Positions 958-50,198 of a DNA stretch of 64,000 nucleotides are shown piece by piece; position 1 is the stretch's first letter, and each line of letters starts with the position of its first letter. Origin of the DNA: an uncultured Oscillospiraceae bacterium (GTDB taxonomy: Bacteria > Bacillota > Clostridia > Oscillospirales > Oscillospiraceae); NCBI GenBank assembly GCA_959607825.1, contig CAUHNW010000006.1, positions 6,757-70,756 of the forward strand, given 5' to 3'. The notes beneath the pieces are model-generated. The model saw only the letters and a list, made by a program, of their open reading frames with translations. It ran no database searches and was not told the DNA's origin. The position numbers were made by a program, and so were the translations under genes.

Positions 958-1245
958 GCGTCTGCGGGCTTTGACGGTTCTTTTCCGCCACAAATCCACT
1001 GCGAAAATTTGAAATACACAAAGTATTCCGGCATTTTCCCAGCATATTTGTGACGCAAAATTCCTCGCCAAATCTCCTTGCCGAATGATGCGGTATTGCC
1101 TCAGGGCAAAAGCACCTGCCGAATGATGCGGTAGTGCCTTAAGGCAAAAGCACTTGCCGAATGATGCGGTAGTGCCATAAGGCAAAAGCACCTGCCGAAT
1201 GATGCAGTATTGCCTTAAGGCACCCCCAAGGGGCGGTGCCCCCAT
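958..1245 (+). repeat. Copy A of a ~190-nt conserved intergenic element. Its 3' part (1079..1222) is four tandem 38-bp units, ending in the hairpin GGCACC-N10-GGTGCC (1219..1240).
   Basis: Aligns block-by-block with 43515..43708. Shared blocks include gcgtctNcgg, tttgacggNtcttttNcgcca, an identical 21-mer ttgaaatacacaaagtattcc (1009..1029 = 43567..43587) and gcggtattgcctYagg. Confidence 0.8.
1079..1222 (+). repeat. Tandem direct repeat, 38-bp unit x ~3.8. Consensus TGCCGAATGATGCGGTAGTGCCTTAAGGCAAAAGCACC; each unit carries the palindrome TGCCTTAAGGCA. No spacers.
   Basis: Units at 1079-1116, 1117-1154, 1155-1192 and 1193-1222 (truncated), with 1-3 substitutions per unit. Sits directly upstream of the activase gene at 1283. 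Confidence 0.9.
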
Positions 1246-11403: not shown

Positions 11404-12009
11404 TCAGTCGTCCGCAAGATCCAGACCAAACAGCTCGGCAAAGTGTCCGTCCAGATCCCCAAGGGCCGTATCATAGCTCTGATCGGCCCGGAGCAGCTTG
11501 GAATGGCAGTCCACGATCAGTCCGCCCAGCCGGAAGGAACCGGCCTGAAAGGTCACATGCCGCCCGGGCAGGCACCCGGCCAGCTCCCGCTGATACTGCA
11601 TGTCCTCGGGGCGGAGCCAGATCAGGCCGTCATAGGGGTTGCCAAGGGCCGCAAAGGCCTCGATGTAGAGCTGCTTCAGGTGGGGGAGATAGTCCTCGGT
11701 TTTGGTAAAGGCCAGCAGCTTTTCCCGGACTGCGTCAAAGACCTCATGGCCGATCTTCTCCCGTCGGGTGGCAATGATCCGCTTGTCGGCCATCATGCGC
11801 CGGGAGATCTCCCGGCCGGTCTCTGCGGTGATGGCCTCAGACTTCTGCTGGGTCTCCGTATCCACCCGGCGGCGTATTTCCGCCGCAGCCGTCTCCACCC
11901 GGGCCCGGCGCTGGGCCTCCACCCGGCTGAGGATCCCGTCCCGTTCCTGCTGGGCATCTTCCAGCACCAGCTGCCGGAACCGGTTCAGTTTATGATTGAT
12001 ATCAGGCAT
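11404..12009 (-). CDS. V-type ATP synthase subunit E
   Basis: 201 aa. Coiled-coil N-terminus rich in Q/E/R/A and a globular C-terminus (GGLIVDC...); lies between F and A. Confidence 0.7.
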   Translation of the reverse strand: MPDINHKLNRFRQLVLEDAQQERDGILSRVEAQRRARVETAAAEIRRRVDTETQQKSEAITAETGREISRRMMADKRIIATRREKIGHEVFDAVREKLLAFTKTEDYLPHLKQLYIEAFAALGNPYDGLIWLRPEDMQYQRELAGCLPGRHVTFQAGSFRLGGLIVDCHSKLLRADQSYDTALGDLDGHFAELFGLDLADD

Positions 12010-12027
12010 TCGCCCATCACTCCTTCG

Positions 12028-12336
12028 TTATACCTTGATTCCGATGGCCTCCCGGATATACCGGGTGATGGAGTCCGGCGGGCGCTCCGTATGGTGGCGA
12101 TCCGGGATCTCCACCAGCAGGGGCCGCACCGAGGTGAGCTTCAGGGCCTTTACCCGTTCCGGGCACAGGGCCGAGAGCTTTTCATTGATGAGAAGGATGC
12201 CGATGTCCGGATCCTTCTCCGCCATGTCTATGGCCCGAAGGGTCTCCTCCTTGGTTTTGCAGAGAACCCCCTCCATTCCGGCCAGCCGAAGTCCTGTGAG
12301 GGTGTCGGAATTATCGGAGATCACAAAGTACCGCAT
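12028..12336 (-). CDS. V-type ATP synthase subunit F
   Basis: 102 aa: MRYFVISDNSDTLTGLRLAGMEG... Confidence 0.8.
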   Translation of the reverse strand: MRYFVISDNSDTLTGLRLAGMEGVLCKTKEETLRAIDMAEKDPDIGILLINEKLSALCPERVKALKLTSVRPLLVEIPDRHHTERPPDSITRYIREAIGIKV

Positions 12337-12340
12337 GATC

Positions 12341-12778
12341 TTACATAAAGAGCATCAGCAGAGCCACCAGCAGGCCGTAGAGGGCCACGCCCTCGGCCAG
12401 ACCTACAAAGATCAGTGCCTTGCCGAAAATGCTGTCGTTTTCGCTCATGGCGCCCAGTGCCGCTGCCGCCGCAGAGGAAACGGCGATGCCGCCGCCTACG
12501 CCGGACAGGCCCACGGCCAGCGCCGCACCCACATATTTGAGGCCATCGGCAATGCCGGAGGCATTTGCGGCATTCGCTGCCGCATCGGCGGCAAATGCGG
12601 TGCCCGAGCAGGCAAAGCCGAATACGGTGGCCATTGCCACCAGTCCGAAGAAGCCGAAGCAGTGGGCAATCAGGGGCTTTTTCACGGTTTTGCCGTCCTT
12701 ATGGCGGCGGGAAATGTACACAAGGGGCAGGACGATGGCCAATGCCATCACGAGCATAATCAAGATTGTCTTTATCAT
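12341..12778 (-). CDS. V-type ATP synthase proteolipid subunit K
   Basis: 145 aa; Gly/Ala-rich hairpin helices with the conserved carboxylate helix. Confidence 0.85.
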   Translation of the reverse strand: MIKTILIMLVMALAIVLPLVYISRRHKDGKTVKKPLIAHCFGFFGLVAMATVFGFACSGTAFAADAAANAANASGIADGLKYVGAALAVGLSGVGGGIAVSSAAAAALGAMSENDSIFGKALIFVGLAEGVALYGLLVALLMLFM

Positions 12779-12804
12779 GGTAGATCCTCCATTTACGCAA
12801 AGAA

Positions 12805-14721
12805 TTAGAAATCAGTCTTTTTTGTATAATCGATGACTGCGGGGGAGAAGGGACGGCTGCCGGATTCATAGAACCGGCCAAACATCTCATAGAATTCCAG
12901 ACGGAGCACCTGAATGCAGACCATCAGGCCCTCGATGCCCATGACCAGAATGTTGCCGATGACCAGCACCACCGGGGAGGCGGGGCTGCCCGCCAAGGTA
13001 TAGACCACCAGCATCATGCCCGCATGGCAGATGGCATAGGCCCCCACCCGCAGGAAGGATACGGTGTTGGTGACAAAGGAGAGGATCACCTCAAACATTT
13101 CAAAGAGGTTCTCGGCAATGAAGCCCCCGATGGATTCGGGCTTCCAGTCCTTTTTCTTTGCCGCCAGCTTCCCCAACGGCTCCTGACAAAACATCACCAG
13201 CAGGGGAAGCACGATAAATACAAGGATATAGGCAGGGCGGAAGACCTTTGCGCCGGTGGTGAGCATCACCACGGCCCCGATGACCACCGCCAGATAGAAG
13301 ATGATCCCCGCCAGAGAGTTGTTGGTAAAGAAGATCTTTTTGATGTCCTTCTGACGGATGCCGTTGGTGATGTTGATGACCATCATCATCGTAATGATCA
13401 CGGCGCCCATGGCGGCGGAGACGATCAGGATCCTTGTGGCGTTGGCCCCGGATTCCAGCACATGAAAGCCCGGGATCAGGTGTTCATAGCCAAAGAAGCT
13501 GCCGAACACAAAGCCGAAGAGGGTAGAGAACACGCCCACGCTGCCCAGAATGCCGCCCAGCCACATGCCCTTTACCTTGTAGAGGAAAATGCCCAGTCCA
13601 ACCAGCACAAGCCCCTGTCCCACATCCCCGTACATGAGGCCGAAGAGAATGGAATAGGTCACGGCCATCAGGAATGTGGGGTCAAATTCATTGTAGGCGG
13701 GAAGGCCGTACATCTCCGTAAAGGGCTGGAAGAGCCTTGCCCAGAAGTTGTTTTTCAGCAGCACCGGCGGCGTCTGCTCCTTCACCGATGCGGGGTCATC
13801 CTGGGCCAGCATCACGTCCGGGAAGGGCTCCAGAGACTTCTGGATCTCCGCCACGGCACTGACCGGAGCCCAGCCGCAGAGCAGGAAGGTCTGATCCTCG
13901 GTCATCACCGCATATTTCTTGATCTCTCCGGCGCCGTACATGAATTTCAGGTAGCTGTAGAGCAGCAGAAGCTCTCCGGTGGCCTGCTGCTTCCAGCTGT
14001 CATAGGCCGCCTGATTCCGGGAGAGCTTTTCCCGGCTGGTATTGGTGTCCGCCTCCAGCATTACGGCGGTATCCTCCGGGGTGCCCGCCACATGCTCCGT
14101 CAGGCGCATCCGCTCGAAGCCAAGGGAATCCATGAGCCGGTCGGATTTCCCGGCGCAGCTCTTGGGGGTCACATAGCAGAGATACACATAGTCCTGCCCC
14201 AGCTGGGTGGGGTAGAGGATGATCTCCGGGTTATCCTCGATTTTTACGCTGAGGGAGTCAAATGCCTCCCGGAGCATCCGGCCAAACCGGAACCGCACAT
14301 AGCCCAGATGATAGATCTCGGATAGATTGCTTGGAAGTCCCGCAAACCGCTGGAGATCCTCCACCTCATGGGTATTCTCGGAGATCCGGCGCTCCAGCTG
14401 CTGGCGTGTATCCGTAAACTGCCGGAACTGCCCGTTCAGGGCCCCAAGCCGCTCTCTGGCCGTGTCCAGATCCAGCGCTTCCTGACGGAAATCCGCAAAT
14501 GCAAACGGAATCTCCATCTCCTCCATGAGCTTCTGCACCATGGAAAGGGGCTCCTGCCACGAGTTGTTCCATGACAGGGGAACCATATGGGTATTCTTGC
14601 TGAGAATGCCTTCGGCCTCCACGGGATGGAACTGCTGGTTCACAAGACTGGTGCAGATGACATGGTCAATGGCATCGCCGGGCCCCGCCAGCGTCAGCAT
14701 TTTCATGGGAACGACAGACAT
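12805..14721 (-). CDS. V-type ATP synthase subunit I (a)
   Basis: Start taken at MSVVPMKMLTL behind an AAAGAGGTGA RBS, 1 nt after the subunit C stop. Soluble N-terminal half and polytopic C-terminal half. Confidence 0.85.
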   Translation of the reverse strand: MSVVPMKMLTLAGPGDAIDHVICTSLVNQQFHPVEAEGILSKNTHMVPLSWNNSWQEPLSMVQKLMEEMEIPFAFADFRQEALDLDTARERLGALNGQFRQFTDTRQQLERRISENTHEVEDLQRFAGLPSNLSEIYHLGYVRFRFGRMLREAFDSLSVKIEDNPEIILYPTQLGQDYVYLCYVTPKSCAGKSDRLMDSLGFERMRLTEHVAGTPEDTAVMLEADTNTSREKLSRNQAAYDSWKQQATGELLLLYSYLKFMYGAGEIKKYAVMTEDQTFLLCGWAPVSAVAEIQKSLEPFPDVMLAQDDPASVKEQTPPVLLKNNFWARLFQPFTEMYGLPAYNEFDPTFLMAVTYSILFGLMYGDVGQGLVLVGLGIFLYKVKGMWLGGILGSVGVFSTLFGFVFGSFFGYEHLIPGFHVLESGANATRILIVSAAMGAVIITMMMVINITNGIRQKDIKKIFFTNNSLAGIIFYLAVVIGAVVMLTTGAKVFRPAYILVFIVLPLLVMFCQEPLGKLAAKKKDWKPESIGGFIAENLFEMFEVILSFVTNTVSFLRVGAYAICHAGMMLVVYTLAGSPASPVVLVIGNILVMGIEGLMVCIQVLRLEFYEMFGRFYESGSRPFSPAVIDYTKKTDF

Positions 14722-14725
14722 TTCA

Positions 14726-15772
14726 TCACCTCTTTGCTTCCGCACCAATGAGGGGCACATAGCTCCGGGGCTCCACCCCGTAGCGGATGCACTCAATGAT
14801 GCTGATGATATTGCGCAGCTCGATCTCCTTCAGGCCCAGATAGGCCATGGGCGTATAGATGGTGGGCACGGCGGCCCGGAGCTGTCGCTGATTGAACCGG
14901 TACTGCATGGTATAGAGATAGGCCTCCGGCCCCGAGGGTGAAATGGACCGGAACAGGGGCCCGTAGGGCCCGTTTAGAACCAGCTCTCTGGCGGCGGCAT
15001 AGTCCGGGGCGGAGAGAAGCTGCTGTACATAGTCCTTCCCCAGCTTGCCGGAGCAGGGCAGGGGAAAGCTGAAGGACCGCACATCCTCTTCGGAGAAGTG
15101 CTGCCGGAGCCGGAGAAACATCACCAGATTTAAGAGATCCGTCTCCTGATCCAGCGCCTTCCGGGTGATCTTCTGACCGTCGGGCCTTCCATAGCGGCCC
15201 AGCACCTTATATAAATGGGCGTAATAGGTCACCAGCAGGATGTTGTCTACAAAGGCCATGGTGGGCGGGGATTCGGAGGCGGCGCTTCGGGCCATGGCGG
15301 AGCCGTAGATGGTGTCCCGGGCGGCATCCGCAATCTGCCGGTAGGTCTCCGCCTGACTCAGGGCCTGAAGATCCAGATGGCTGTGCCTGCGGAGCAGGGG
15401 CGCCCATGTGGCCTCCGGCTCCAGCATATGCCGGGAGGAGAGCCGCCGCATGGAGGTCAGAATGGCCTCCTTTTCCGCCTGATAGATGGGAAACCGCATC
15501 AGCGCCTGATCCTGTAGGGATAAAAAGCTGAAAATCCGGTGATATTCATTGCGGTAGGTGGTGCGCAGGGCATTTTCCAGCTGCTCCCGGTGCAGTCCCT
15601 CGGGATGCAGCCCCGCAAGCTCCCTTCGGTAGCCCCGATGGGACTGCAAAAAGGCCGCCGCCTGAGGGATGGTGGTTTTGCCCATGAGCTGCCGGTAGTC
15701 CTCGCCGGTCATCCGGCCCCCATACATGGCCCGAACCTTGGCGGCCACCGCCAGATAGGCGTTACCGGCCAT
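14726..15772 (-). CDS. V-type ATP synthase subunit C (d)
   Basis: 348 aa: MAGNAYLAVAAKVRAMYGGRM... matches the NYxYLxARVRAM motif. Confidence 0.8.
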   Translation of the reverse strand: MAGNAYLAVAAKVRAMYGGRMTGEDYRQLMGKTTIPQAAAFLQSHRGYRRELAGLHPEGLHREQLENALRTTYRNEYHRIFSFLSLQDQALMRFPIYQAEKEAILTSMRRLSSRHMLEPEATWAPLLRRHSHLDLQALSQAETYRQIADAARDTIYGSAMARSAASESPPTMAFVDNILLVTYYAHLYKVLGRYGRPDGQKITRKALDQETDLLNLVMFLRLRQHFSEEDVRSFSFPLPCSGKLGKDYVQQLLSAPDYAAARELVLNGPYGPLFRSISPSGPEAYLYTMQYRFNQRQLRAAVPTIYTPMAYLGLKEIELRNIISIIECIRYGVEPRSYVPLIGAEAKR

Positions 15773-16100
15773 GGCCGTCGCCTGCCTTTCCTACGATCCG
15801 GGCTACAATGGTGTCCACCCATTGATCCTTTTTGGCTGCATACAGGGCTTCCACCTGCCCCAGCTTTTGCTGAAGGCGGTCATCCAGTGCCTGAAGCTGC
15901 TCCTGACAGGCGGCCTGCTCTTTTTGACGAAGCTCGTCCAGCGTCTTTTGGGCCTCGGCCTCATACTGGGCAGTAATGGTCTCGATCTCCCGCTGGATAC
16001 CTTCCTCCAGCGTGGCCTCCGCCGCCTTGGCGTCCCGGGTCAGTGCCTGCGCCTGCTGGTCGGTGGCCAGAACACGGCCAATGAGTTCTGCCTGATTCAC
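15762..16100 (-). CDS. V-type ATP synthase subunit G/H-like coiled-coil protein; first gene of the operon
   Basis: GTG start (VNQAELIG...) preferred because of an AAAGGGGGA RBS; the track's TTG at 16121 is the alternative. A/E/Q-rich coiled coil. Confidence 0.5.
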   Translation of the reverse strand: MNQAELIGRVLATDQQAQALTRDAKAAEATLEEGIQREIETITAQYEAEAQKTLDELRQKEQAACQEQLQALDDRLQQKLGQVEALYAAKKDQWVDTIVARIVGKAGDGHGR

Positions 16101-16518
16101 AGAAAGTCCCCCTTTTTGCAAAAGCTCCGGGCAGGTGGTGGGAATGTGCCAGATGTCCGGAGTGAATATTATTGTTTGAGTTTCGATTTTGCGAAGATGA
16201 AATAATCTTCACAAACCATTATAAACCGATTCTTATAAATTGCAAGTATTTGGCCGCAAATTGTATCCGCCTCCCGGCAATCGCCGCAGTCCGGCTGCCG
16301 TTCCGGCCCCTTCACGGCGAAGATTTTACAAACTTTTTTGATGAAAAAACATTATTTTCTCACTGTTTTGAAGGAAGATATTCCATCATTTTGCGGGAAA
16401 ATTGATTTGTAAAAATCACTTCCATTTCGGGATACACTCCTGTATAATATTCCTAAACAACGGAGGCGGCAGCGCCGCTTCCCGGCAAAACCATCACATT
16501 ATGACAGGAGGATTTCAT

Positions 16519-41943: not shown

Positions 41944-42210
41944 CGATAACACAAAGGCAATGATGGAGAACAGTAGGGATCGTCTCCGGCCCTCAGAGAG
42001 CTTCCGGTTGGTGCGAGGAAGCGGCCCCCAATTCCGAAATTACACTCCGGAGCTTCCGGCTGAATGAAGTAGGCCCCCACGGGTGCGCCCGTTACTGCGC
42101 AGGAGTTGTCTGACTCCCTGAGGCCGTCTGCTGTGAGGCAGCGGCGAACCAGAGGTGGTACCGCGTAATTACGCCCTCTGCTTGCAGCCATGCAGGCAGA
42201 GGGCTTTTTG
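41944..42210 (+). promoter_or_regulatory. T-box riboswitch leader (tyrosyl) with intrinsic terminator; promoter TTGACA-18-TATACT at 41908..41937
   Basis: Conserved T-box sequence aaccAGAGGTGGTACCGCG (42147..42165) overlaps the terminator hairpin gccctctgc...gcagagggc followed by TTTTT; tyrS lies downstream. Confidence 0.8.
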
Positions 42211-42256: not shown

Positions 42257-43489
42257 ATGACACTGTACGAAGAACTCACCGCCCGGGGCCTCATTGCCCA
42301 GACCACCAATGAGGAAGAGATCCGGGACATGATCAACAACGGCAAGGCCACCTTCTATATCGGCTTTGACTGCACCGCCGACAGCCTTACCGCAGGGCAT
42401 TTTATGGCCCTGACCCTGATGAAGCGCCTTCAGATGGCGGGCAACAAGCCCATCGCCCTGATCGGCGGCGGCACCACCATGATCGGCGACCCCTCGGGCC
42501 GTACCGACATGCGGAAGATGCTCACCAAGGAGGACATTGACCACAATGCCGAGTGCTTCAAGCGCCAGATGGAGCGGTTTATCGACTTCTCCGATGGCAA
42601 GGCCCTGATGCTCAACAACGCCGATTGGCTGCTGAACCTCAACTATGTGGAGCTGCTCCGTGAGGTGGGCGCATGCTTCTCCGTCAACAACATGCTCCGT
42701 GCCGAGTGCTACAAGCAGAGAATGGAGAAGGGGCTTTCCTTCCTGGAGTTCAACTACATGATCATGCAGTCCTACGACTTCTACTACCTGTTCCAGCACT
42801 ACGGCTGCAACATGCAGTTCGGCGGCGATGACCAGTGGAGCAATATGCTGGGCGGCCGGGAGCTGATCCGCCGGAAGCTGGGTGACGGCACCAAGGCCAA
42901 CTCCATGACCATCACCCTGCTCACCGACTCTCAGGGCAAGAAGATGGGCAAGACAGCCGGCAATGCCGTGTGGCTGGATGCCAACAAGACCTCTCCCTAC
43001 GACTTCTACCAGTACTGGCGGAACGTGGGCGATGCGGACGTGATGAAGTGCATCCGCATGCTGACCTTCCTGCCGCTGGAGCAGATCGATGAAATGGACA
43101 AGTGGGAAGGCAGTCAGCTCAACCAGGCCAAGGAGATCCTTGCCTACGAGCTCACCCGGATGGTGCATGGTGAGGAAGAGGCCGAGAAGGCGCAGGCCGC
43201 TGCCCGGGCGATCTTTGTTTCCGGCGGCGCTTCTGCCGATATGCCCACCACCACTCTCACCGCCGAGGATGTGCCTGAGGATTCCATTGGCGTCCTGAGC
43301 CTTATGGTCAAGTGCGGTCTGTGCAAGTCCAACGGCGAAGCCCGCCGTCTGGTACAGCAGGGCGGCGTACTGGTAGACGATGAAAAGGTCACGGATTCCG
43401 CCGCAACCGTAGCAAAGGAAAAGCTGGAAGCCGGTGTTGTCATCAAAAAGGGCAAGAAGGTCTTCCATAAGGCTGTTCTGGCAAAGTAA
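42257..43489 (+). CDS. tyrS: Tyrosine--tRNA ligase
   Basis: Start at MTLYEEL behind a GGAGGAA RBS. HIGH-type FDCTADSLTAGH, KMSKS-type KKMGKT, and a C-terminal S4 domain. Confidence 0.95.
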   Translation: MTLYEELTARGLIAQTTNEEEIRDMINNGKATFYIGFDCTADSLTAGHFMALTLMKRLQMAGNKPIALIGGGTTMIGDPSGRTDMRKMLTKEDIDHNAECFKRQMERFIDFSDGKALMLNNADWLLNLNYVELLREVGACFSVNNMLRAECYKQRMEKGLSFLEFNYMIMQSYDFYYLFQHYGCNMQFGGDDQWSNMLGGRELIRRKLGDGTKANSMTITLLTDSQGKKMGKTAGNAVWLDANKTSPYDFYQYWRNVGDADVMKCIRMLTFLPLEQIDEMDKWEGSQLNQAKEILAYELTRMVHGEEEAEKAQAAARAIFVSGGASADMPTTTLTAEDVPEDSIGVLSLMVKCGLCKSNGEARRLVQQGGVLVDDEKVTDSAATVAKEKLEAGVVIKKGKKVFHKAVLAK

Positions 43490-43514
43490 ATTTTTAGGGC
43501 AACACCGCGCAAAT

Positions 43515-43708
43515 GCGTCTTCGGATTTTGACGGATCTTTTTCGCCAGAAATTCGTCTGTAAAACCTTGAAATACACAAAGTATTCCTGCGGTTTTACAC
43601 CTTTTTCTGACAGAAAAATCTCTCGTCAGACTCTCTCGCCGATTTGCGCGGTATTGCCTTAGGATGCTCCCTGATATCCGCAGTCTTCGGGCTGCGGATA
43701 TTTATTTT
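43515..43708 (+). repeat. Copy B of the ~190-nt conserved intergenic element, ending in a rho-independent terminator (43673..43708)
   Basis: Homologous to 958..1245, including the identical 21-mer at 43567..43587. Terminal hairpin gatatccgcag-N7-ctgcggatat followed by a T-run. Confidence 0.8.
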
Positions 43709-43717
43709 ATCTTTCTC

Positions 43718-43764
43718 TTGACATATCTGTGCATACTGTATATACTGTTTATACACAGTATGCA
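43718..43764 (+). promoter_or_regulatory. Sigma-A promoter (TTGACA-17-TATACT) overlapped by a palindromic operator
   Basis: Perfect 9-bp inverted repeat GCATACTGT (43731..43739) and ACAGTATGC (43756..43764), extending to a 12-bp near-palindrome; it spans the -10 element and the transcription start. Confidence 0.7.
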
Positions 43765-43777
43765 GGGAGGTGCTGGG

Positions 43778-44155
43778 GTGCAGTTACTCATCGACAATAA
43801 GAGCGGCGCACCGATCTACGAGCAGATCTATACGCAGCTGAAGGAGCAGATCATTTCCGGTGCGCTTACTGAGGATCAGCCGCTGCCCTCCATCCGCGCT
43901 CTGGCCAAGGATCTCCGCATCAGCGTCATCACCACAAAGCGGGCCTACGATGAGCTGGAGCAGGAGGGGTTCCTCTACACCATCGCCGGGAAAGGGTCCT
44001 TTGTGGCAAAGAAGAATACCGAGCTGCTCCGGGAGGAACAACTGAAAAAAATAGAGGGGCATCTGTCCGAGGTGCGGCGGCTGGCTGCCTCCATTCACCT
44101 GACCCGGGAGGACATCCGGGAAATGCTGGCGCTTATGTGGGAGGATGAATTATGA
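43778..44155 (+). CDS. GntR-family (YtrA-like) transcriptional regulator
   Basis: GTG start behind a GGGAGG RBS. Winged HTH (PSIRALAKDLRISVITTKRAYDELEQEG); short, with no effector domain. Confidence 0.85.
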   Translation: MQLLIDNKSGAPIYEQIYTQLKEQIISGALTEDQPLPSIRALAKDLRISVITTKRAYDELEQEGFLYTIAGKGSFVAKKNTELLREEQLKKIEGHLSEVRRLAASIHLTREDIREMLALMWEDEL

Positions 44156-45003
44156 ACGCAATTTCGGTAAAAGACCTGACGATTACCTATCATGGGGGAA
44201 AGAAACCGGATTTCTCCTTTGGTCCTGTGACGCTGGAGCTGCCCAAGGGCGCAATTCTTGGGCTATTGGGAGAAAACGGTGCCGGAAAGACAACATTGAT
44301 GAAGTTGATCCTTGGCCTGCGGCGGCCTCAAAGCGGCGAGATCTCTCTGCTGGATGGGGTGCCGGGACAACCGGCCATCATGGAAAACGTCGGCGTGGTA
44401 CTGGATGAGCCGGGGGTTCCCGCATGCCTGACGCCCGTGCAGCTTGGAAAGGTGCTGGGTCGGATCTACCATTCATGGGATCCCCAGCGCTATGCGCAGT
44501 ATCTCCGGCAGCTGCAGCTGCCGGAAAATAAGCCCTTTTCGGAGTTCTCCAAGGGCATGAAAACAAAGCTGTCCATTGCAGCGGCACTGGGACACTGCCC
44601 AAAGCTTCTTATACTGGATGAACCCACCTCCGGCCTTGACCCGTTGGTTCGAGAGGAAATGCTGGAGCTGCTTTCGGATTTTACCAGAGACCCGGAGCAT
44701 TCCATCCTGATTTCCTCCCACATTGTCGGTGATCTGGAAAAGCTCTGCGACTATGTAGCGTTTCTCCATCACGGAACGCTGCTGCTGTGTGAAGAAAAGG
44801 ATCGGGTGCTGGAGCAGTATGGCATTCTGCATGGGTCGGCCTCTGAGATCGATGCGCTGGATCCGCAGGCAGTGCTTCATCAGGAGCGATCCGCCTACGG
44901 CGTAGAGGCGCTGGTTCGGCGTGCGCTTGTGCCTCAGAGCCTAGCGCTGCGCTCAGCCACCCTGGAGGAAATTTTTGTTGGTATGATAAAGGAGGAGGCA
45001 TAA
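44152..45003 (+). CDS. ABC transporter ATP-binding protein
   Basis: Walker A (GENGAGKTT), signature (FSKGMKTK), Walker B (LILDEPTSGLD); 4-nt overlap with the GntR gene. Confidence 0.9.
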   Translation: MNAISVKDLTITYHGGKKPDFSFGPVTLELPKGAILGLLGENGAGKTTLMKLILGLRRPQSGEISLLDGVPGQPAIMENVGVVLDEPGVPACLTPVQLGKVLGRIYHSWDPQRYAQYLRQLQLPENKPFSEFSKGMKTKLSIAAALGHCPKLLILDEPTSGLDPLVREEMLELLSDFTRDPEHSILISSHIVGDLEKLCDYVAFLHHGTLLLCEEKDRVLEQYGILHGSASEIDALDPQAVLHQERSAYGVEALVRRALVPQSLALRSATLEEIFVGMIKEEA

Positions 45004-48845: not shown

Positions 48846-48990
48846 CCCTTATTAAGAGTGGTGGAGGGATCGGCCCTATGAAGCCCGGCAACCTGCAAAT
48901 GCAAGGTGCCAAATCCGGCGGTGCAAATCGAAAGATGAGGTTTTCTACGCTCTTTCAGCGTCCCGCCGATTCCGGCGGGACGCTTTTTGT
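48846..48990 (+). promoter_or_regulatory. SAM-I (S-box) riboswitch with terminator; promoter TTGACA-16-TATAAT at 48781..48808
   Basis: cttattaagagtggtggagggatcggccctatgaagcccggcaacc...gaaagatgagg matches the S-box consensus. Terminator gcgtcccgccg-attc-cggcgggacgc followed by a T-run. Confidence 0.85.
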
Positions 48991-49034: not shown

Positions 49035-50198
49035 ATGGCAAAACGTATTTTTACATCAGAATCGGTAACGGAAGGACATCCCGATAAGATCTGTGACCAG
49101 ATCTCTGACGGCGTACTGGACGCCATCCTTGAAAAAGACCCCATGGCCCGGGTGGCCTGCGAGACCATTACCACCACCGGCATGGTCTTCGTCATGGGCG
49201 AGATCACCACGGACTGCTATGTGGACATTCCCGCCATTGCCCGGGAGGTCATCTGCCGCATCGGCTACGACAAGCCCGAATACGGCTTTGACGGCAACAC
49301 CTGCTCTGTAATGACCGCCATTGACGGCCAGAGCCCCGACATCGCTCAGGGCGTCAACCACGCCTATGATGACGAGGGCGAGACCGGTGCAGGCGATCAG
49401 GGCATGATGTTCGGCTTCGCCTGTGACGAGACCCCCGAGCTGATGCCCGCCCCCATTTCCTATGCCCATCAGCTGGCCCACAAGCTCACCGAGTGCCGGA
49501 AGTCCGGGGAGCTGCCTTGGCTGCGCCCCGATGGAAAGAGTCAGGTTTCCGTCCAGTATGGCGAGGACGGCAGCGTAGAGCGCATTGACGCAGTGGTGGT
49601 CTCCACTCAGCACGCCCCGGACATCGACATTGAGACCCTTCGCCGTGAGATCATCGAAAAGGTCATCAAGACCACGCTTCCTTCCGAGCTGCTGGACGAG
49701 GACACCAAGTTCTTTGTGAACCCCACCGGACGCTTTGTGGTAGGCGGCCCTGTGGGCGATTCCGGCCTCACAGGACGGAAGATCATCGTTGACACCTACG
49801 GCGGCTATGCGGCCCATGGCGGCGGCTGCTTCTCTGGCAAGGATCCAACCAAGGTAGACCGTTCTGCCGCCTACATGGCCCGGCACATCGCCAAGAACAT
49901 TGTAGCTGCCGGTCTTGCAAAGAAGTGCCAGATCGAGCTGGCCTATGCCATCGGTGTGGCACAGCCCGTGTCCGTGCTGGTGGACACCTACGGTACCGGC
50001 GTGGTAGCCGACGAAAAGCTCTCCGATGCGGTGCGCAAGGTCTTTGATCTGCGGCCCGCCGAGATCATCCGCTATCTGGATCTCCGCCGCCCCATCTACT
50101 CCGCCACCGCTGCCTACGGTCACTTTGGCCGTCCGGAGCTGAACCTTCCCTGGGAGCGCACGGACCGGACAGAGGACCTCAAAAAGGCTGTGCTGTAA
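49035..50198 (+). CDS. metK: S-adenosylmethionine synthase
   Basis: [25 protein letters not shown]...GGGAFSGKD. Confidence 0.95.

Follow-up and report, generated by a model that had tools for sequence, protein, structure and literature searches.

A dispersed palindromic repeat downstream of rsmE and tyrS in an uncultured Oscillospiraceae bacterium: a probable miniature inverted-repeat transposable element of IS5 type

The window analysed here is a stretch of 64,000 nucleotides from an uncultured Oscillospiraceae bacterium (assembly GCA_959607825.1, contig CAUHNW010000006.1, positions 6,757 to 70,756), and it holds two copies of a non-coding element that very probably belongs to the miniature inverted-repeat transposable elements (MITEs). 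Copy A lies downstream of rsmE at 941-1100 (160 bp) and copy B downstream of tyrS at 43498-43658 (161 bp), both full-length and on the + strand. Copy A was delimited with an nhmmer profile of the family, forms one long hairpin and is absent from strains with an empty site, and copy B is a full-length nhmmer match of 112 bits. A first-pass annotation, made from the sequence alone, had described two related non-coding copies, both on the + strand, and the alignment bears this out; the length of about 190 nt and the limits of 958-1245 and 43515-43708 that it gave are replaced by a unit of about 160 nt with the limits stated above. The identity of the two copies, estimated then at about 75%, is 74.8% (122 of 163 columns) over the true element, and the sequence flanking copy A is unrelated to that flanking copy B. 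The only open reading frames (ORFs) inside the element are chance ones of at most 40 residues, in agreement with the earlier view that neither copy has coding potential.

Both copies carry the same 21-mer, TTGAAATACACAAAGTATTCC, at 1009-1029 in copy A and at 43567-43587 in copy B (+ strand in each), in which a stem GAAATAC/GTATTCC with an A.C mismatch encloses the loop ACAAA. It has two exact matches in the window and no third at up to three mismatches, the chance expectation being 0.01. A second shared block, GCGGTATTGCCTYAGG, is found at 1090 and 43648, with degenerate versions at 1128, 1166 and 1204; this block and the 21-mer had both been reported before, and each could be located in either copy. 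The feature that had been overlooked is that the ends of each copy are inverted repeats, reading GGCAAAACCGTATCATT... on the left and ...AATGATGCGGTATTGCC on the right of copy A, and GGCAACACCGCGCAAAT... and ...ATTTGCGCGGTATTGCC in copy B, so that each copy as a whole makes up a long imperfect hairpin, at whose apex the 21-mer lies. Differences between the two copies in the terminal stem compensate one another, TATCATT/AATGATG in copy A corresponding to CGCAAAT/ATTTGCG in copy B.

At the rsmE locus, copy A is preceded by the tetranucleotide CTAA (936-939), the left target-site duplication, which holds the rsmE stop codon TAA (937-939) and is followed by an extra A at 940. Behind the copy, at 1101-1218 on the + strand, is a minisatellite of three 34-bp mini-elements (1105-1138, 1143-1176 and 1181-1214). 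These are set apart by spacers that resemble the target YTAR (TTAA, CTAA, TTAG or CTAG), namely TCAG at 1101-1104, TTAA at 1139-1142 and ATAA at 1177-1180, and the array closes with the right target-site duplication, TTAA (1215-1218). Each mini-element consists of the start of the left end (GGCAAAAGCAC) fused to the final 22 nt of the right end, and Tandem Repeats Finder describes the array after copy A as 38 bp x 3.8 copies with 91% matches. The exact 242-residue RsmE of the window is also encoded on contigs from other human-gut samples, and in the 10 contigs listed the spacer between rsmE and the next gene is 66 nt, as against 343 nt in the window. The empty site reads GGGGAGTA-TTAA-AGGCACCCCC (GAGTA-TTAA-AGGCACC), with a single TTAA that includes the rsmE stop codon. 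The filled site in the window reads GGGGAGTA-CTAA-A, then the element and its mini-copies up to 1214, then TTAA-GGCACCCCC. When the two are aligned the flanks are identical except for two single-base differences downstream, and the stretch 940-1218 is missing as a whole from the empty sites. The duplication around copy A is inexact (CTAA on the left, TTAA on the right) and its register is off by one A; the extra base may reflect a 5-bp duplication that has lost one base, or prior variation.

At the tyrS locus, copy B sits between the tyrS stop codon (43487-43489) and the tyrS terminator, with the target-site duplication TTAG on its left (43494-43497, 4 nt past the stop codon) and again TTAG on its right (43659-43662). 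Contigs related to this locus were found through the exact protein of an ABC ATPase (44152-45003); an exact-protein look-up with TyrS returned no record. Copy B is present in eight of these contigs (L120-126 and L128, the L-numbered names used here being labels of the compared loci and contigs). A more diverged strain, L119, is without it, and there the spacer between tyrS and gntR is 106 nt, reads GTAAGTTTTAAT... and leads directly into the terminator hairpin. The intrinsic terminator of tyrS, identified by a terminator scan at 43673-43702 on the + strand as a 13-bp stem followed by a run of T, had earlier been taken as the end of copy B, and the GC-rich hairpin after rsmE (GGCACCCCCAAGGGGCGGTGCC..., 1219-1245, + strand) as the end of copy A. 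Neither assignment holds, as both features lie outside the element. The GC hairpin is nearly unchanged (one extra base) in strains without the element and a diverged form of the tyrS terminator hairpin is present in the strain without copy B, and these two structures therefore belong to the host and not to the repeat.

The first-pass annotation had proposed a genome search with the 21-mer, and this showed that the resemblance extends beyond these two places. A scan of one-genome-per-species contigs, from which loci were taken as fixed 8-kb blocks, found the 21-mer in at least 118 stretches, nearly all of them labelled as Oscillospiraceae, Faecousia, Limivicinus, Acutalibacter(aceae), Ruminococcaceae, Butyricicoccaceae or Oscillibacter. 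Several copies often occur in a single metagenome-assembled genome among the matches listed, for example in Red_deer_2_mag_2 and RGIG3677. Copies were also seen on contigs binned as Bacteroidota (L013, L109 (Barnesiella intestinihominis) and L102 (Alloprevotella sp.)), and it is more likely that these are mis-binned Oscillospirales contigs than that the element has been transferred between phyla. A separate scan of metagenomes was made with the commonest end 18-mer, GGAACCTCTGAATAAATC, so that the ascertainment bias on the core was removed, and it gave more than 120 loci with the terminal repeat. The elements number 138, at 121 distinct sites. The bounds of the copies with the 21-mer were taken from an alignment in which the arms were extended outward from the core; calling by minimum free energy ran over into the flanks. 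The size determined in this way is sharply fixed at 159-172 bp, with a mode of 162, and in the cleanest copies the left arm measures 68-69 nt and the right arm 71-72 nt.

The ends of the element and the sequence around it have the character of a transposon. All ends are of the form GG...CC, with the consensus GG[A/C/T]A[A/C]C... and ...G[T/G]T[T/G/A]CC, and among 40 copies the terminal helix (alignment columns 1-11 with 161-171) is 93% paired. Of 83 copies, 27 have exact 4-bp direct repeats on either side, where shuffled pairings gave 3.0 on average and 8 at most, and in the independent metagenome set an exact 4-bp duplication flanks 31 of 68 full copies (shuffles: mean 4.7, maximum 12). The composition of the flanks is Y-T-A-R, which is the target of IS5, and the exact duplications comprise TTAA (7), CTAA (4), TTAG (4), TTGA (3), CTAG (2) and others. 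The non-palindromic cases, CTAA/CTAA and TTAG/TTAG, indicate that these are direct duplications and not extensions of the palindrome. The element thus has the features by which MITEs are recognised: it is short and non-coding, it has terminal inverted repeats and a target duplication, it occupies many unrelated sites, and it is present in some strains where others have an empty site.

A possible partner for the element, from the same habitat, was found in the same scan of gut metagenomes. The contig L242 carries, at 11660-12872, a 1213-bp insertion sequence with TTAA/TTAA flanks, whose other end is GAAACCTCTGAATTAATC. The same insertion sequence occurs at L230:3912-5135 with flanks CTAG/CTAA and, in a frameshifted form, in L259 with flanks CTAG/CTAG; these three share the same 18-nt ends, and L194 has a 905-bp deletion derivative. 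The MITE end agrees with the left end of the L242 insertion sequence at 18 of 18 positions by construction of the search; the agreement at the right end, GAAACCTCTGAATTAATC, is independent of the search. One contig of 2.5 kb, L224, contains both an end of this insertion sequence and a MITE. The 332-residue protein of L242 (11807-12805, - strand) is assigned to the IS5 family of transposases by NCBIfam (NF033581, 316 bits against a cut-off of 140), matches Pfam PF01609 (DDE_Tnp_1, E = 4.8e-29) and PF05598 (DUF772), and is 49% identical to InsH1 of Escherichia coli IS5 over 319 residues (E = 3e-112). The E. coli IS5 is of similar length (1195 bp, ends GGAAGGTGCGAATAAG and GGAAGGTGCGAACAAG), and the MITE end GGAACCTCTGAATAAA agrees with GGAAGGTGCGAATAAG at 11 of 16 positions in the same register. 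The first 118 loci yielded solo end-like matches without pairs and no autonomous element, tblastn with E. coli InsH1 gave no match in them, and in the two parts of the window that lack confident gene calls (14.8-16.4 kb and 46.9-47.9 kb) there was no ORF resembling a transposase.

On this evidence we regard the element as a non-coding, non-autonomous MITE of IS5 type, about 160 bp in length and spread through the Oscillospirales, and we put the probability of this at about 0.88. Mobile DNA of this class is well known, but the present member of it has apparently not been described; the literature searched contained no paper linking MITEs with Oscillospiraceae or related taxa, and no description of the element family. 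A dispersed repeat of the repetitive extragenic palindromic (REP) or MITE kind had been among the earlier suggestions, and of these the MITE part stands, while a REP is at odds with a 160-bp unit, a 4-bp duplication and a DDE partner. It had also been thought that a match to a known Rfam family, or a resemblance limited to two loci and lacking covariation, would make the element known or trivial. Neither was the case, as cmscan gave no match to a known family and both wide occurrence and covariation were found; it is through its transposon hallmarks that the element proves to be of an ordinary kind.

A mechanism for its spread can be proposed. The terminal inverted repeats of about 18 nt would serve as recognition sites for a DDE transposase of the IS5 group acting in trans, and the source of the enzyme would be the 1.2-kb insertion sequence with the same ends. 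Insertion would occur at the YTAR tetranucleotides and duplicate those four base pairs, and since YTAR contains TAA and TAG, many copies would come to lie at or just past stop codons. Such copies would then be placed between a gene and its terminator and be co-transcribed as a long 3'-untranslated hairpin. Resident copies might themselves become substrates for tandem insertion, for symmetric internal deletion, which would give the mini-elements and the 38-bp minisatellite, and for recombination. From the sequence comparisons we infer that a transposase of the L242 type may mobilise the element, and in a similar way the positions of the copies suggest that they are co-transcribed and could affect the mRNAs of the host. 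The insertion sequence is not the source of the element's interior, with its covarying quasi-palindrome and conserved apex.

Rearranged forms of the element were encountered in several loci. Symmetric deletion products, in which the two ends are joined as mini-elements of 76, 45 and 27 nt, are present in metagenome loci. Full copies follow one another head to tail at L084:2778-3100, 3 nt apart (TAA, part of a YTAR-like site), and more loosely at L072:4640-4927 (7 nt apart) and in L083; further cases are seen in the left flanks of L109 and L118. This arrangement is as expected if the duplicated target beside a resident copy is itself a preferred target. In L127 different genes lie upstream of the gntR operon, and the junction falls inside a chimeric MITE (2371-2507) whose inner part is the exact reverse complement of positions 68-121 of copy B, joined to the outer right arm of B. 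The chimera points to a rearrangement with its breakpoint inside the element, and suggests recombination between two copies. A BLAST search of plasmid and phage collections with copy B gave no match.

A nested insert of about 54-58 nt was also observed in the apical loop of the MITE in L148, L151, L182, L217, L225, L231, L253 and L257. It is placed between GAAA-TA and TA-CACAAAG, apparently duplicating TA (for example at about 690-750 in L151), and it has hairpins of its own, GCGCAGCCGTTGGCGGC...GCCGCCTTACGGATGCGGC. A copy with the insert had no match in Rfam, and the insert may be a second, smaller mobile element inside the MITE.

Several observations weigh against the element being no more than an IS5-type MITE. 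What the MITE has in common with the insertion sequence is confined to about 19 nucleotides at the ends, and the interior of the MITE has no counterpart there. No insertion sequence was found with the ends of the window subfamily, GGCAAYACCGC; the partner has the ends of the GGAACCTCTGAATAAATC subfamily only. Each copy folds as a single hairpin on either strand with z of about -10 (copy B: -9.8 on the + strand and -10.6 on the - strand), and covariation extends along the whole hairpin. A passive MITE would account neither for this covariation nor for the conserved apex, the unequal strands, the bias of orientation and the strong conservation of one orthologous copy, which are described below. 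In an alignment of 40 copies mutually less than 90% identical, RNAalifold predicts 43 pairs, and 35 of the 43 have changes on both sides. The proportion of paired cells is 91.2%, compared with 66.8% in shuffled alignments (0 of 500 shuffles reached the observed value) and 33-48% when partners were slid by 1-3 columns, and cells with a double change number 389 where 128 are expected. The apex GAAATAC-N5-GTATTCC is conserved also in copies picked by their end and not by their core. The commonest cores are GGGAAATACATACAGTATTCC (21), TTGAAATACACAAAGTATTCC (11) and GGGAAATACACAAAGTATTCC (7), and compensated variants of the apex occur occasionally (GCAATAC...GTATTGC and GAAATCC...GGATTCC). One orthologous insertion, shared by three species (L047:7553-7711, L060:6374-6532 and L115:969-1127), is better conserved than its surroundings: the element is 97.5-98.7% identical, and identity in the flanks is 89-91% when either of the other two is compared with the more distant L115, and 98.3% in the close pair L047/L060. 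This single case could reflect constraint, or conversion from other copies.

The two strands of the element are also unequal. The complement of the strand that reads as + in the window folds better as RNA in 40 of 40 and in 63 of 63 copies, by about 20 kcal/mol on average, and the asymmetry is kept in 90 of 90 copies when the apex is swapped for a tetraloop. G.U pairs number 5.5 per copy on the complementary strand and 2.1 on the + strand, and a GC skew of -0.19 was measured for the + strand in all 40 copies, which means that its unpaired positions are C. Orientation with respect to genes was assessed at the 121 distinct insertion sites with a home-made gene caller, whose calls are approximate. 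Where the neighbouring genes run in tandem, the + strand is sense at 45 sites and antisense at 14 (p = 6.5e-5), a bias of about 76%; with respect to the gene on their 3' side, 69 copies have the same orientation and 30 the opposite one. Counted before duplicate sites were removed, stop codons were found facing the 5' end in more cases than the 3' end, and nearer to it (median 19 nt, compared with 91 nt for the 3' end). The orientation is thus biased but not fixed, copies being found in all four gene contexts. It follows from the bias that in most transcripts the hairpin would be the less stable one of the two. This could come from selection against the very stable orientation, from a function specific to one strand, or from a bias of insertion.

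These properties could be accommodated if the interior were a selected, strand-specific structured module that has been kept across the order, either as an orientation-sensitive hairpin in untranslated regions (UTRs) of RNA or as a folded form needed for mobilisation by the IS5 group. The parts of such a module would be the apical hairpin GAAATAC-N5-GTATTCC, the covarying quasi-palindrome along the full length and the C-rich unpaired positions of one strand. We consider this rather unlikely; if it were true, it would imply a long-term partnership, of the kind seen with REPINs, between a hairpin element and a DDE transposase. A role of the apex as an operator of the host was considered and set aside, as neither the window nor the insertion sequence has another GAATAC-N5-GTATTC site.

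A further alternative sees in the element above all a functional, structured RNA, either a module of the 3' or 5' UTR that acts in cis or a small RNA, which has spread or been domesticated and whose hairpin and conserved apical loop are under selection as RNA, for example as a stabiliser of mRNA, an insulator, an RNase III site or a protein-binding loop. A structured RNA or 3' UTR family was also one of the first suggestions made for the window copies. The strength of the covariation, the conservation of the apex in end-selected copies, the orientation bias towards neighbouring genes on either measure, the asymmetry of strands in every copy and the orthologous insertion more conserved than its flanks can all be read in this way, and both window copies lie within probable transcription units (rsmE and tyrS). 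The type of covariation nevertheless seems unlike that of RNA families, wobble pairs being rare. Of 1718 cells, about 31 are G.U on the + strand and about 60 are A.C, which corresponds to G.U on the complementary strand; mismatches of other kinds are more numerous than either, at about 92. A spectrum that is almost purely Watson-Crick would fit a DNA palindrome kept complementary by selection or by copying from arm to arm; template switching in quasi-palindromes is a known mechanism, and covariation of this pattern is expected of any conserved DNA palindrome. There was no match in Rfam at gathering or at permissive thresholds, the best sub-threshold values being E >= 0.045 to unrelated families. 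The element has no promoter within it, its supposed terminators belong to the host, and it occurs in both orientations and in every gene context, with the better-folding strand mostly antisense to neighbouring genes. Its copies are polymorphic between near-identical strains, and hence dispensable. An RNA as the primary nature of the element is for these reasons improbable. A role as RNA that is secondary to transposition is conceivable, given that both window copies are placed for co-transcription with rsmE or tyrS and that the family has a bias of orientation and unequal strands.

The element might also be moved or recognised as folded single-stranded DNA, in the manner of REPIN/RAYT pairs, of IS200/IS605 elements and their PATEs or of integron attC sites, by an enzyme that reads the hairpin rather than the terminal sequence. 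It would be in accord with this that structure is kept along the whole length while the sequence drifts, that the same strand always folds better, and that the right arm is about 3 nt longer, with the conserved apical A.C and a G.T at one site in 64 of 83 copies. However, the copies are flanked by a 4-bp YTAR duplication, and HUH-type single-strand transposons and REPs are not known to make target duplications of this kind. A DDE insertion sequence of the IS5 family has the same ends and the same target, and the flanks of the copies in the first loci contained no repeated protein family except ABC ATPases and no Y1/HUH gene adjoining any copy. As judged by eye, the ends have no attC R''/R' boxes (RYYYAAC/GTTRRRY), and an integron attC site in particular was rejected because the sites are scattered beside housekeeping genes and have duplications. 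We therefore hold recognition as folded single strands to be very improbable. That the resemblance is a local duplication or a chance one confined to this genome is scarcely credible, given the 0.01 matches expected for the 21-mer, the occurrence at no fewer than 118 loci in other species and at over 120 metagenome loci, and the unrelated flanks of the two copies.

As an IS5-type MITE, the element invites comparison with systems already described. It resembles IS5 of E. coli in the 4-bp YTAR duplication, the GG ends and the partial identity of these ends, and its partner resembles IS5 in length (1213 and 1195 bp) and in its transposase. The hosts are different, being Oscillospirales for the element and Proteobacteria for IS5. 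The MITE is not an internally deleted insertion sequence; its interior is a 125-nt quasi-palindrome with a conserved apex, which the insertion sequence lacks. The ERIC/IRU elements of enterobacteria, the Correia elements of Neisseria and the RUP elements of Streptococcus pneumoniae are dispersed imperfect palindromes of 100-160 bp over their full length. They are intergenic and often co-transcribed with their neighbours, and as long RNA hairpins they can affect the processing of mRNA; Correia and RUP have TA targets and are associated with other transposase families. The architecture of a hairpin of the whole length is alike, but there is no sequence similarity, and the target here is YTAR and the partner of the IS5 group. 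REPs and REPINs are similar in being palindromic, dispersed, intergenic, kept across related species and found in tandem or clustered arrangements. REPs are units of 20-40 nt moved by an HUH tyrosine transposase (RAYT), whereas the present element has 160 bp, a 4-bp duplication and a match to a DDE transposase.

Among described elements the closest likeness is with IS5-linked MITEs such as BrickBuilt and its relatives in Porphyromonas gingivalis, which are non-coding, have terminal repeats that match IS5-family elements of the same genomes and carry a minisatellite (PMC4596501). Their duplications vary in length and sequence, and the word 'hairpin' is absent from the text that describes them (PMC4596501). 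Both are non-coding MITEs linked to IS5 and both include a minisatellite (here in copy A), but the sequences and hosts are unrelated, and the minisatellite of the present element is made of its own joined ends and not of an internal repeat.

Identification of the element as a MITE explains a repeat downstream of rsmE and tyrS that could otherwise be mistaken for a regulatory RNA, and provides annotators of gut Oscillospirales with a repeat family defined by its ends, size, target and partner insertion sequence. The family may also break assemblies and probably seeds rearrangements, L127 having a breakpoint inside a copy. Human-gut strains whose neighbouring proteins are identical differ in the presence of copies, which can therefore serve as strain markers and also as natural experiments on the effect of a 160-nt hairpin at the 3' end of an mRNA. 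With its Watson-Crick-only covariation, its apex and its asymmetry of strand and orientation, the element would be a reasonable model for how long palindromic MITEs keep their arms complementary.

Other features of the window were noted in passing. The cmscan of the whole window found two ordinary known elements, a T-box leader upstream of tyrS (41951-42181, 109.5 bits) and a SAM-I riboswitch (48846-48941, 79.5 bits) upstream of the gene at 49035. At 12805-16121 there are ORFs that, judged by eye from their translations, encode V-type ATPase-like subunits (a 663-residue membrane protein and proteins of 348 and 119 residues), of which the codon-based gene caller left the latter two uncalled. 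Just upstream of the operon of the GntR-family regulator and ABC transporter, at 43718-43768, a strong sigma-70-like promoter (TTGACA-17-TATACT) overlaps a long palindrome, ATACTGTATATACTGTTTATACACAGTAT. This arrangement is conserved in strains with and without the MITE, and the palindrome is probably the regulator's own operator.

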